Shown: positions 10,825 through 61,826 of the stretch, piece by piece
How positions within the stretch are numbered: position 1 is the first letter of the stretch
How the letters are laid out: every line of letters begins with the position of its first letter
Assembly (NCBI RefSeq): GCF_000026545.1
Contig: NC_011601.1
Strand: one strand, 5' to 3'
DNA: 64,000 nucleotides
Source of the DNA: Escherichia coli O127:H6 str. E2348/69
GTDB taxonomy: Bacteria; Pseudomonadota; Gammaproteobacteria; Enterobacterales; Enterobacteriaceae
The notes under the pieces: generated by a model
What the model saw: the letters and a program-made list of their open reading frames with translations, nothing else
Told to the model about the DNA's origin: nothing
Database searches by the model: none
Made by a program: the position numbers and the translations under genes

Positions 10825-13146
10825 ATGATGAATGATTCGTTCTGCCGCATTATTGCGGGTGAAATTCAGGCGCGCCCGGAACAGGTTGACGCTGCCGTTC
10901 GCCTGCTTGACGAAGGGAATACCGTGCCGTTTATCGCACGTTATCGTAAGGAAATCACCGGCGGTCTGGATGACACGCAGCTGCGTAATCTGGAAACGCG
11001 TCTGAGCTATCTGCGCGAGCTGGAAGAGAGACGTCAGGCGATCCTCAAGTCCATTTCCGAGCAAGGCAAACTCACCGATGATCTGGCGAATGCCATCAAC
11101 GCCACCCTAAGCAAAACCGAACTCGAAGACCTCTACCTGCCCTACAAACCTAAACGCCGCACCCGTGGGCAAATCGCCATTGAAGCAGGGCTTGAGCCGT
11201 TGGCCGATCTGCTGTGGAGCGATCCGTCACACACGCCAGAAGTCGCCGCTGCACAATATATTGATGCCGATAAAGGCGTGGCAGATACCAAAGCCGCGCT
11301 GGACGGCGCGCGCTATATCCTGATGGAACGGTTTGCCGAAGATGCCGCGCTGCTGGCGAAAGTGCGTGATTATCTGTGGAAGAACGCGCATTTGGTTTCT
11401 ACGGTGGCGAGCGGTAAAGAAGAGGAAGGGGCGAAATTCCGCGACTATTTCGATCATCACGAACCGCTGTCCACGGTGCCTTCTCACCGCGCGCTGGCGA
11501 TGTTCCGTGGTCGTAACGAAGGCATACTTCAGCTTTCGCTGAATGCCGATCCGCAGTTCGAAGAACCGCCGAAAGAGAGCTATTGCGAGCAAATCATCAT
11601 GGATCACCTTGGCCTGCGCCTGAACAATGCCCCAGCGGATAGCTGGCGCAAAGGTGTGGTGAGCTGGACGTGGCGCATCAAGGTGTTGATGCATCTGGAA
11701 ACTGAACTGATGGGCACCGTGCGCGAACGCGCGGAAGATGAAGCAATCAACGTCTTTGCCCGTAACCTGCATGATCTGCTGATGGCGGCCCCTGCCGGGC
11801 TGCGTGCAACGATGGGCCTCGATCCGGGTCTGCGTACTGGGGTAAAAGTGGCGGTAGTCGATGCAACTGGCAAACTGGTGGCGACCGATACCATTTATCC
11901 GCATACCGGGCAGGCCGCAAAAGCAGCGATGACCGTTGCTGCGCTGTGTGAAAAGCATAATGTTGAACTGGTGGCGATCGGCAACGGTACAGCTTCTCGC
12001 GAAACCGAACGTTTCTATCTCGACGTGCAGAAGCAGTTCCCGAAAGTGACCGCGCAGAAAGTGATCGTCAGCGAAGCTGGCGCGTCGGTTTACTCGGCTT
12101 CCGAGCTGGCAGCACAGGAATTCCCGGATCTCGACGTTTCGCTGCGTGGCGCGGTGTCTATCGCCCGTCGTTTGCAGGATCCGCTGGCGGAGCTGGTGAA
12201 AATCGATCCGAAATCTATCGGCGTAGGTCAGTATCAGCATGACGTCAGCCAGACGCAGCTGGCACGCAAACTGGATGCAGTAGTAGAAGACTGCGTAAAC
12301 GCCGTTGGCGTCGATCTCAACACCGCTTCTGTTCCTCTGTTAACCCGCGTGGCGGGCCTGACGCGCATGATGGCGCAAAACATCGTAGCCTGGCGCGATG
12401 AGAACGGCCAGTTCCAGAACCGTCAGCAACTGTTAAAAGTGAGCCGTCTGGGGCCGAAAGCCTTCGAGCAGTGCGCGGGTTTCTTGCGCATTAACCACGG
12501 TGATAACCCGCTGGACGCTTCTACCGTTCACCCGGAAGCCTATCCGGTGGTGGAACGCATTCTGGCAGCAACACAGCAGGCACTGAAAGATCTGATGGGT
12601 AACAGCAGCAAACTGCGTAACCTGAAAGCATCTGGCTTTACTGATGAGAAATTCGGTGTGCCGACGGTAACCGACATCATCAAAGAGCTGGAAAAACCGG
12701 GTCGCGATCCGCGTCCGGAATTTAAAACCGCTCAGTTTGCCGATGGCGTCGAGACAATGAACGACCTGCAACCGGGTATGATCCTCGAAGGTGCGGTGAC
12801 CAACGTCACCAACTTTGGCGCGTTTGTCGATATTGGCGTGCATCAGGACGGCCTGGTTCACATCTCTTCATTGTCGAACAAGTTTGTGGAAGATCCGCAT
12901 ACCGTGGTGAAAGCGGGCGACATTGTGAAGGTGAAAGTGCTGGAAGTGGATCTTCAGCGTAAACGTATCGCCCTGACCATGCGTCTGGACGAGCAGCCTG
13001 GCGAAACCAACGCCCGTCGCGGCGGCGGTAATGAACGCCCGCAAAACAACCGCCCGGCAGCCAAAACGCGTGGGCGTGAAGCGCAGCCTGCCGGTAACAG
13101 CGCGATGATGGATGCGCTGGCGGCGGCAATGGGCAAAAAACGTTAA
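10825..13146 (+). CDS. yhgF: Tex-like transcription accessory protein (S1 RNA-binding domain protein YhgF)
   Basis: 773 aa; YqgF/RuvC-like and HhH regions, C-terminal S1 domain, basic tail. Confidence 0.9.
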
Positions 13147-26707: not shown

Positions 26708-29419
<2,712 letters not shown>

Positions 29420-29421
29420 GT

Positions 29422-29452
29422 TTAGCCGGATAATGCATTGGATCCGGCTTAC
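29422..29452 (+). terminator. Hairpin terminator after malT
   Basis: AGCCGGAT-AATGCATTGG-ATCCGGCT followed by a T-rich tract. Confidence 0.55.
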
Positions 29453-29461
29453 ATCTTTATA

Positions 29462-30481
<1,020 letters not shown>

Positions 30482-31708
30482 TTATCCTTTTACGCACACC
30501 ACCTGACGCAGGGTATAGATAACTTCCACCAGATCGCTTTGTGCCGCCATCACCGCATCAATATCTTTATACGCCATCGGGATTTCGTCGATCACTTCGG
30601 CATCTTTACGGCATTCCACATGCGCGGTGGCACGAATTTGATCTTCCACGCTGAACAGTTTTTTCGCTTTAGTACGGCTCATTACCCGCCCGGCACCGTG
30701 GCTGCACGAACAGAACGACTCTTCATTTCCCAGCCCACGGACAATAAAGCTTTTCGCCCCCATCGAACCGGGAATAATTCCATATTGACCAGCACGCGCA
30801 GACACCGCGCCTTTACGCGTCACATAGATCTCTTCGCTAAAGTGCTGTTCTTTTTGCACATAGTTGTGGTGACAGTTGATCTCTTCCATCGCCAGCGTTT
30901 GTGGCTGTCTTACCGTTTTCTGCGTAACGCTCTGCAACGCCGTTACCACGTTTTCCATCATCGCATCGCGGTTAAGGCTGGCAAAAAGCTGCGCCCAGGC
31001 CACCGCTTTCAGGTAATCGTCAAAATATTCCGTACCTTCCATAAAGTACGCCAGGTCACGCGATGGCAACGTTTCAAGTGTTTCCTGCATCTCTTTTTGC
31101 GCCAGATCGATAAAGTAAGTCCCGATGGCATTACCAATTCCGCGTGAACCGGAGTGCAGCATAATCCACACCTGATCCGACTCATCAAGGCAAATTTCAA
31201 TAAAGTGGTTACCCGTTCCCAGCGTTCCCAGGTGTTTATAGTTATTGGTATTAAGGAAACGCGGATATTTTTGCGTTAACCACTGATAACCGGCTTCAAG
31301 CTCAGCCCATTTCGCATCGACGTTAACAGGCGGTTTTTCCCATGCGCCTTTATCACGTTTACAACGGCCTGTGGTACGCCCATGCGGCACGGCAGCTTCA
31401 ATCGCCTGACGCAGCTCCGCCAGGTTTTCAGGCAGGTCAGCCGCCGTTAACGCGGTACGCAGCGCGTTCATTCCACAACCGATATCTACCCCCACCGCCG
31501 CCGGAATAATCGCTCCTTTGGTTGGGATCACGCTACCAATGGTGGAACCTTTACCCAGATGTACATCAGGCATTACCGCAATATGTTTGAAAATAAACGG
31601 CATCTTCGCCGTATTTATCAGTTGCTGACGCGCATCGTCTTCTACCGGTACGCCTTTGGTCCACATTTTTACCGGGACATTTTCAGTGGTCAGTAATTCG
31701 TAATTCAT
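30482..31708 (-). CDS. rtcB: RNA-splicing ligase RtcB
   Basis: 408 aa, MNYELLTTENVPVKMWTKGVPVE; conserved His/Cys metal ligands. Confidence 0.93.
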   Translation of the reverse strand: MNYELLTTENVPVKMWTKGVPVEDDARQQLINTAKMPFIFKHIAVMPDVHLGKGSTIGSVIPTKGAIIPAAVGVDIGCGMNALRTALTAADLPENLAELRQAIEAAVPHGRTTGRCKRDKGAWEKPPVNVDAKWAELEAGYQWLTQKYPRFLNTNNYKHLGTLGTGNHFIEICLDESDQVWIMLHSGSRGIGNAIGTYFIDLAQKEMQETLETLPSRDLAYFMEGTEYFDDYLKAVAWAQLFASLNRDAMMENVVTALQSVTQKTVRQPQTLAMEEINCHHNYVQKEQHFSEEIYVTRKGAVSARAGQYGIIPGSMGAKSFIVRGLGNEESFCSCSHGAGRVMSRTKAKKLFSVEDQIRATAHVECRKDAEVIDEIPMAYKDIDAVMAAQSDLVEVIYTLRQVVCVKG

Positions 31709-31745
31709 TTTATTTTTCTCTTTTCGTTGTTTGCTGTCCAGATAA

Positions 31746-31763
31746 TTGCAACCGTCGTGCCAG
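31746..31763 (-). promoter_or_regulatory. Sigma-54 (-24/-12) promoter of rtcBA
   Basis: Minus strand reads CTGGCACGACGGTTGCAA = TGGCAC-N5-TTGCA, the RpoN consensus, about 40 nt upstream of the rtcB start. Confidence 0.85.
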
Positions 31764-31896
31764 AAAATTAAATGAGTAGATTAATTTTTTAATTCATTGT
31801 TTTTAAATAGATAAAATCTTTACGTCCGTAAACGGAGATTTCCCACAAAGCCAATTTTCCGATAATGAAATATCGTCTTTTATAAGGATATCTAAG

Positions 31897-60759: not shown

Positions 60760-61826
60760 ACTCGTTGTCCTGTTTCACCATCAAAAAGATGCAGCTGATT
60801 TTCCGGCAGATGCAGCCACAGCGTGCTGCCTGCCGTCGGGCGCTCCTGATGTGCCAGTCGCACCACCAGCTTCTGTTCGCCCCAACGTCCGTGCGCCAGG
60901 TTATCTGCGCCGAGGATCTCCAGCGTGTCCATCACCAGCGGCACACCACCTTCTGCCTGCGAGCTTAGCGCTATATGTTCCGGGCGAATGCCGAGGGTCA
61001 TTTTACGCCCGGCATACTGACGGTAGCCACCGTTTAGCGGCAGCGTAATACCACCATCCAGTTCGAAATGCGTACCTTCGTTATTCACGCGGCCAGCCAG
61101 TAGGTTCATCGCCGGGCTGCCGATAAAACTCGCCACAAACAGGCTGGCGGGCTTTTCGTACACTTCAACTGGCGTGCCAATCTGTTCGGCGATGCCGCCG
61201 TTCATCACCATTACTCGCTGGGCGAGCGTCATCGCCTCAACCTGATCGTGGGTAACGTAGAGTGAAGTCGTTTTCAGGCGACGGTGCAGCTGTTGCAGTT
61301 CAAGACGCATCTGCACACGCAACTTGGCATCGAGGTTAGAGAGCGGCTCATCAAACAGGAACACTGCCGGCTCACGCACAATCGCACGCCCCATCGCCAC
61401 ACGCTGGCGCTGACCGCCGGAAAGCTCACGCGGGCGGCGCTTAAGCAGGCCGTCCAGCTCCAGAATGCGCGCCGCTTCTTTAACACGTTCGGCAATTTGT
61501 TGCTTGCCCATGCCGCGAATTTTCAGCCCCCACGCCATGTTCTCCTCTACGCTCATATGCGGATAGAGCGCGTAGTTCTGGAACACCATCGCAATCCCGC
61601 GATCTTTCGGCTCCATTTCGGTGACACGCTTGCGGTCGATCCAGATATCGCCCGTCGTTACCCGCTCCAGTCCGGCCACCATTCGCAATAACGTCGATTT
61701 CCCGCAGCCAGACGGCCCGACCATCACGATAAATTCGCCATCCGCCACATCAAGGGTCAGCGGTTTAATGACCTGGGTTTTGCCATCCCAGCTTTTGGTT
61801 ACTGCCTGTAATTTCAGTCCTGCCAT
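60756..61826 (-). CDS. ugpC: sn-glycerol-3-phosphate ABC transporter ATP-binding protein
   Basis: 356 aa from [15 protein letters not shown]; Walker [10 protein letters not shown], signature LSGGQRQR. Confidence 0.93.

Follow-up and report, generated by a model that had tools for sequence, protein, structure and literature searches.

The rtc locus and its divergent intergenic region

We analysed a window of 64,000 nucleotides from E. coli (EPEC) E2348/69 in which rtcB and rtcA, encoding the RtcB ligase and the RtcA cyclase, diverge from rtcR, the gene for their sigma-54 activator (Table 1). The gap between rtcB and rtcR spans exactly 31709–31896, or 188 bp. RefSeq places the same borders on the E2348/69 locus, with which 31600–32000 is 100% identical. 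Searches of Pfam and NCBIfam, together with the RefSeq names, bear out the assignments of rtcB, rtcA and rtcR that a first-pass annotation had made from the letters of the sequence. The RtcR protein matched the NCBIfam RtcR equivalog model (cutoff 650) over residues 1–527 and contains the Pfam domains RtcR (2–185) and Sigma54_activat (187–354), giving a CARF domain, an AAA+ domain and a C-terminal helix-turn-helix. The locus thus has the features of an RtcR-controlled RNA repair operon, with rtcR adjacent and divergent and both the ligase and the cyclase encoded. An Rfam search of 31300–32300 returned no RNA family. The rtc locus is flanked by malT and glpR; rtcR runs into the convergent glpR, the two genes sharing their last 19 bp (33477–33495), and glpR (33477–34286) is intact here (252 aa in RefSeq for E2348/69), whereas it is annotated as a pseudogene in K-12 MG1655.

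K-12 has the same malT-rtcA-rtcB/rtcR-glpR order (rtcBp/rtcR) and the same 188-bp intergenic region. Over these 188 bp the window carries 12 substitutions relative to K-12, and none of them falls in the −24/−12 element, the IHF-like core or the GATA palindrome that are described below and that the two strains share. With these functional elements unchanged, nothing points to regulation that differs in E2348/69. The rtcA–glpR block itself differs from K-12 as a divergent allele: from the end of malT through rtcA, rtcB and rtcR into glpR (29250–34000) identity to K-12 is 92–95%, compared with 98–99.6% in the flanks (malT, glpG). Over 4,751 bp the identity of the block amounts to 94.1% with K-12, 93.0% with Escherichia sp. 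E1V33 and 92.5% with E. albertii. Among the 4,856 E. coli genomes that match 31600–32000, just 42 do so at 99% identity or more, and the rtc locus of E2348/69 as a whole appears to be an allele that is uncommon, ancient or acquired from elsewhere. The same junction between rtcB and rtcR was unmatched in 570 of 5,426 complete E. coli genomes. At least one genome (H20) retains only the rtcR side, which indicates that some strains have lost the rtc operon and can do without it.

Table 1. Features of the rtc locus, with positions in the window; identity is that to the window sequence over 10 enteric lineages.
Feature	Position	Strand	Identity	Remarks
rtcBA operon under the sigma-54 promoter	29462-31708	-		
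rtcA	29462-30481	-		RtcA equivalog, 770.7 bits; RefSeq name agrees
rtcB	30482-31708	-		Pfam RtcB, 445.7 bits; RefSeq name agrees
Remaining rtcB leader	31709-31735	-		purine-rich ribosome-binding region and conserved block AACGrAAAwGrGA, from reading the sequence
Predicted rtcBA start, C31736	31736	-		19 bp downstream of the motif centre (31755)
−24/−12 element of rtcBA, TGGCACGACGGTTGCA	31762..31747	-	0.89	TGGCAC-N5-TTGCA; unique consensus match, top matrix score
DNA between IHF-like core and promoter	31764-31789		0.42	
Overlapping alternative IHF match, AATTAAAAAATTA	31794..31782	-		
IHF-like core, AAACAATGAATTA	31802..31790	-	0.75	one mismatch to WATCAANNNNTTR; centre −60
Spacer DNA	31803-31859		0.48	
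Escherichia-only palindrome, TCCGTTTACGGA	31825-31836			centre −94.5
Perfect 16-bp palindrome, candidate RtcR UAS, CGATAATGAAATATCG	31860-31875			CGATA-N6-TATCG; centre −131.5
Palindrome arms, CGATA-N6-TATCG	within 31860-31875		0.99	
Possible sigma-70 −10 hexamer of rtcR (low confidence), GATAAT	31861-31866	+		inside the palindrome
Palindrome spacer	31865-31870		0.72	
Third GATA-like half-site, TATAA	31880-31884		0.96	conserved; one helical turn from the palindrome
rtcR ribosome-binding site, AAGGA	31884-31888	+		8 nt before the ATG at 31897; GGA conserved in enterics
rtcR, divergent sigma-54 activator	31897-33495	+		NCBIfam RtcR equivalog NF038308, 847.5 bits

For comparison we scanned one genome per species for RtcR and obtained 25 loci from Proteobacteria, Verrucomicrobia, Desulfobacterota and Calditrichia. 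Few of these were enteric, so eight loci were added through protein look-ups, six or seven of which look enterobacterial by gene context. A divergent −24/−12 element lies 128–177 bp from the rtcR start in 21 of the 25 rtcR loci (four phyla). In the eight enteric loci measured, 133–137 bp separate the −24 element from the start of rtcR.

The sigma-54 promoter of rtcBA

The first-pass annotation had read a sigma-54 promoter upstream of rtcB at 31746–31763, which is the element in Table 1 with one flanking base on each side. The promoter is confirmed here, as part of an already known system. On the minus strand, cTGGCACGACGGTTGCAa (31763..31746) matches every specified position of the consensus YTGGCACGrNNNTTGCW, with GG at −25/−24 and GC at −13/−12, 10 bp apart. 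The 64-kb window has a single exact copy of TGGCAC-N5-TTGCA, where dinucleotide shuffles predict 0.06. Allowing one mismatch gives 2 occurrences for 1.97 expected, a count at chance level, so that only the exact match is informative. We then scanned the window with an RpoN weight matrix built from 28 Salmonella sigma-54 sites (PMC3844500), excluding the orthologous rsr site. No other position in the window scored as high as the rtcBA element, whose 19.8 bits exceed the training-site median (19.1 bits; range 16.4–23.6); the runner-up reached 13.7 bits. The best scores in each of 100 shuffled windows averaged 14.3 bits and reached 22.2 at most. The next two elements in the window, TGGCACGCAAACTGGATG at 12260–12277 (plus strand, 13.7 bits) and TGGCACGCCAGTTGAAGT at 61162–61179 (minus strand, 12.5 bits, one mismatch to the sigma-54 core), fall short of the scores of known sites and do no better than shuffled sequence.

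TGGCAC and TTGCA do not vary across 13 enterobacterial loci. The 17-nt element CTGGCACGACGGTTGCA is identical in K-12, where a sigma-54 ChIP-seq peak (OS35, Bonocora et al.) lies on it upstream of rtcB (PMC4591121). The element is oriented with rtcB, and the rule that transcription starts 19 bp downstream of the motif centre (PMC4591121) predicts C31736 as the start in E2348/69, 28 bp from the rtcB ATG at 31708, leaving a 28-nt leader. This is the expected place: the predicted start of the K-12 rtcB promoter is also 28 bp from the gene, and the promoter is listed in EcoCyc as experimentally confirmed (PMC4591121). The dinucleotide A31737/C31736 likewise fits the ApC dinucleotide with which transcription from the native rtcBA promoter was primed at −1/+1 (PMC9650030).

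The leader is conserved as well. A comparison of 31709–31736 with loci L028–L033, L006 and L024 showed that the block AACGrAAAwGrGA is kept in enterics both where rtcB comes first (Escherichia and L031) and where rsr, encoding Ro60, does (most others). The rsr–Y RNA module was apparently acquired or lost at exactly this point, between the leader and rtcB. The rtcBA promoter and divergent rtcR of E. coli K-12 were reportedly described by Genschik et al. in 1998, who mapped the rtcBA start by primer extension.

A candidate RtcR enhancer and a likely IHF site

We aligned the intergenic regions of 13 enterobacterial loci to obtain a footprint of the DNA upstream of the promoter, with identities to the window sequence computed over 10 lineages (Table 1). 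This DNA is AT-rich, as the first-pass annotation had described, and the remaining 130 bp up to rtcR had been expected to hold the RtcR sites. That expectation can be narrowed: the AT-rich middle is mostly unconserved spacer (identity 0.42–0.48) with an IHF-like core, and the best-fitting candidate for RtcR binding is a conserved dyad in the roughly 25 bp adjoining rtcR (31860–31884).

The dyad is the perfect palindrome CGATAATGAAATATCG, which is the best candidate, as judged from sequence, for an RtcR upstream activating site (UAS). It occurs nowhere else in the window (0.08 expected) and lies inside the DNA known to be functional in K-12, where 175 nt upstream of the rtcB ATG suffice for RtcR-dependent expression (PMC5175333); this fragment corresponds to 31709–31883 here. 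With TATAA the palindrome reads TATA-N6-GATA-N6-TATC, a phasing that we compared with the array TATC-N6-GATA-N6-GATA-N6-TATC of Pseudomonas sp. (locus L009). A generic repeat finder applied to 31700–31910 reported only low-significance AT-rich repeats, none of them conserved.

The same half-site recurs far beyond the enterics. The 5-mer most enriched upstream of the promoter is GATAA/TTATC, present in 15 of 17 non-redundant loci against 5.4 expected, and GATA/TATC tetramers concentrate at −124 to −170 across phyla. Unbiased enumeration of 4-mer dyads ranked GATA-N6-TATC first in enterics (9 of 10 lineages) and TATC-N6-GATA first in other proteobacteria (6 of 7), compared with a maximum of 2–3 in shuffles. 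Within the zone −176 to −96 these two dyads were found 10 and 6 times, against 0.02 and 0.06 expected from the rest of the fetched DNA; as the enteric sequences share descent, their counts are not independent. The C-terminal helix-turn-helix segment of RtcR, including its recognition region, hardly varies between E. coli and Verrucomicrobia, so that one would expect the half-site to be shared. Three verrucomicrobial loci have rtcR 414–1,709 bp from the promoter, behind another open reading frame, and the GATA motifs are still found at −146 to −166 from the sigma-54 promoter, which ties them to the promoter and not to the rtcR start.

The main alternative puts RtcR at a different place in the 130 bp, in the AT-rich middle or at palindromes near −90, and makes the GATA palindrome part of a sigma-70 promoter of rtcR or the operator of another protein. 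The −90 palindromes, TCCGTTTACGGA and its neighbour TTTACGgaCGTAAA (31832..31819), the latter our first candidate by eye, are at a plausible distance for a UAS. The RtcR helix-turn-helix hardly changes, yet these palindromes are missing beyond Escherichia and vary even in E. albertii and K-12, and we set them aside as the general RtcR site; the AT-rich middle has the low conservation noted above. The GATA palindrome does include GATAAT, and conserved translation signals of rtcR adjoin it. A −10 hexamer, however, leaves unexplained the symmetric TATCG arm, conserved across a variable spacer, and a role confined to rtcR is at odds with the position of the verrucomicrobial motifs. Awkward for a single protein is that the dyad flips between clades. 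Comparison of 31860–31875 with loci L007–L011, L034 and L035 showed it everted in enterics (GATA-N6-TATC) and inverted in other proteobacteria (TATC-N6-GATA), and one dimer or binding geometry would not explain both orientations. On balance we consider binding elsewhere unlikely, and prefer the GATA palindrome as the candidate enhancer. Pseudomonas sp. L009 has both orientations, separated by 20 bp, and so does L034, with the second one imperfect (GATT-N6-TATC).

Two further observations concern the −90 region and the rtcR border. Other Escherichia species share TCCGTTTACGGA with the window, and K-12 has an imperfect version; at its place other enterics have a short GC-rich GCGCAGCG-like motif followed by 5–7 T. 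GATATC at 31887–31892 was also rejected as a candidate: other enterics keep only the GGA of the rtcR ribosome-binding site, and the sequence lies outside the K-12 175-nt fragment.

The candidate enhancer shares its DNA with signals for rtcR expression. GATAAT is conserved in most enteric loci; neither a sigma-70 scan nor inspection found a convincing or conserved −35 for it, and the scan gave no plus-strand rtcR promoter. A likely −10 hexamer and a ribosome-binding site in the conserved block could explain part of its conservation. Outside the enterics a GGATAA half-site sits at the expected position of the rtcR ribosome-binding site, so that conservation may be partly translational. Because the candidate enhancer overlaps GATAAT and the rtcR leader, RtcR may damp its own gene; autoregulation is possible and at this point speculative.

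Between the candidate enhancer and the promoter we identified a likely site for IHF, predicted from the core at 31790–31802. One-mismatch IHF matches are common in the window (67 against 49 expected), and the E. coli core alone therefore proves little. Support comes from other loci. Perfect IHF cores lie on the same strand at −61/−62 in Iodobacter, Accumulibacter and three Pseudomonas, and at −50/−51 in three enterics, giving 8 in 28 loci where 0.02–0.13 would be expected (0.13 with composition-matched shuffling). In the enteric alignment, CAA...TA of the core is invariant within an otherwise variable stretch. Escherichia has a 10-bp insertion between core and promoter, which places the core 10 bp farther from the promoter than in Salmonella-type loci, and a compensating 10-bp gap further upstream.

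IHF might still play no part, the AT-rich spacer being intrinsically curved and the E. coli core a chance match in AT-rich DNA. The single mismatch in a window rich in such matches fits this reading, as does the absence of an IHF-like core from the verrucomicrobial and Desulfobacterota loci. Chance would not, however, be expected to place eight perfect cores on one strand between −50 and −62 or to hold CAA...TA invariant, and an 'rtc IHF binding site' is mentioned, without coordinates, by the Buck laboratory (PMC9650030). We regard this alternative as improbable, somewhat more so than binding of RtcR elsewhere, and retain IHF as the likely occupant. The Verrucomicrobia differ in other respects too. 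Six of their loci (L012, L014, L016, L021, L026 and L027) share a conserved block of about 70 bp (…aaaaattttcttcccctgtatttacaaggcttccagcgtcatcc…gtgccaagttt) between the GATA motifs and the −24 element, about 20–90 bp upstream of TGGCAC. They carry a GCTAGC palindrome among the GATA half-sites and no IHF-like core in the conserved block, which suggests that verrucomicrobial rtc loci use a different architectural solution.

A proposed mechanism and its relation to known systems

Published work bears directly on the promoter. The Salmonella ortholog upstream of rsr is positive by ChIP-chip and sigma-54 dependent (PMC3844500). For the upstream elements, the RtcR enhancer was entered as 'NK' (not known) in a 2016 review (PMC4987338), we found no coordinates of the rtcBA UAS or the rtc IHF site in the literature searched, and the supplements of PMC9650030 do not contain the hybrid promoter sequence.

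That the −24/−12 match is a silent or chance sigma-54 site, like many intragenic ones, and that rtcBA uses another promoter is extremely improbable: most E. coli sigma-54 sites are indeed transcriptionally inactive under standard conditions (PMC4591121), the native rtcBA promoter was reported to be very weak in vitro (PMC9650030) and a sigma-70-like TGGACA-17-AAAAAT lies on the same strand (31740..31712), but one such match is no more than chance predicts (1.2 expected), and transcription from it would begin within the rtcB start codon, whereas the sigma-54 site is intergenic, properly oriented and at a fitting distance from rtcB, adjoins a dedicated activator gene in a layout conserved across phyla, and has published RtcR- and sigma-54-dependent expression behind it in K-12 and Salmonella. 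The K-12 equivalent of the TGGACA −35 is AGGACA.

We consider it highly probable that 31709–31896 serves as the divergent control region of the RNA-repair locus in E. coli, in which a sigma-54/RtcR promoter is combined with a predicted GATA-half-site enhancer, a predicted IHF bend and, speculatively, autoregulation. By extension from K-12 experiments through sequence identity, sigma-54 RNA polymerase would bind 31762..31747 as a closed complex, and transcription of rtcBA would begin at about C31736 only when the enhancer-binding ATPase RtcR is active. The C-terminal helix-turn-helix of RtcR is predicted to bind the phased GATA/TATC half-sites beside its own gene, CGATAATGAAATATCG and TATAA (31861–31884). 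IHF would bend the AT-rich spacer near −60 (31802..31790), allowing the RtcR oligomer to reach the polymerase, and bound RtcR may, more speculatively, repress rtcR as PspF does at pspF. The broader proposal, that the RtcR enhancer is a GATA/TATC array phased at 10 bp (TATA-N6-GATA-N6-TATC in E. coli, 31861–31884), conserved from Proteobacteria to Verrucomicrobia and coupled to autoregulation by RtcR, is tentative and in our judgement falls just short of an even balance.

The arrangement can be set beside several known systems. In Salmonella Typhimurium, rsr-yrlBA-rtcBA likewise has a divergent rtcR, with the sigma-54 promoter TGGCACGCTGGTTGCAAT at equal distance (PMC3844500, PMC9879122). The related locus L029 shares the Salmonella promoter sequence and has an IHF core as well as an imperfect version of the palindrome (CGAGATAATTTTATCG). 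In Salmonella and most other enterics rsr (Ro60) comes first, followed by Y RNAs, whereas in Escherichia rtcB directly follows the conserved leader. Promoters of the classical IHF-assisted type (nifH, glnHp2) have the same layout, in which a −24/−12 core is preceded by an IHF bend near −60 and a UAS near −130; at rtc the UAS and IHF site are predicted, and the activator and half-site (GATA/TATC with 10-bp phasing) are different.

The divergent pspF-pspABCDE region of E. coli, reportedly described by Jovanovic, Dworkin and Model in 1997 (cited in PMC12606134), is organized like rtc: the activator gene is divergent, an IHF site (at rtc, a predicted one) lies between enhancer and promoter, and the enhancer (at rtc, a candidate) lies over the promoter region of the activator. 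The autogenous control of PspF has reportedly been demonstrated, whereas for RtcR it is suggested by overlap; RtcR is controlled through its CARF domain, and PspF by PspA.

The rtcBA promoter of E2348/69 is a textbook sigma-54 promoter in another E. coli lineage and in itself nothing new. What is added is a concrete predicted placement of the RtcR enhancer (31860–31884) and the IHF site (31790–31802), new as predictions only. A recent quantitative model of Rtc simply assumed rtcR expression to be constitutive. If true, autoregulation by RtcR would contradict the constitutive rtcR assumed in current quantitative Rtc models, and the action of RtcR on its own promoter would matter for modelling how Rtc is induced by ribosome-targeting antibiotics.
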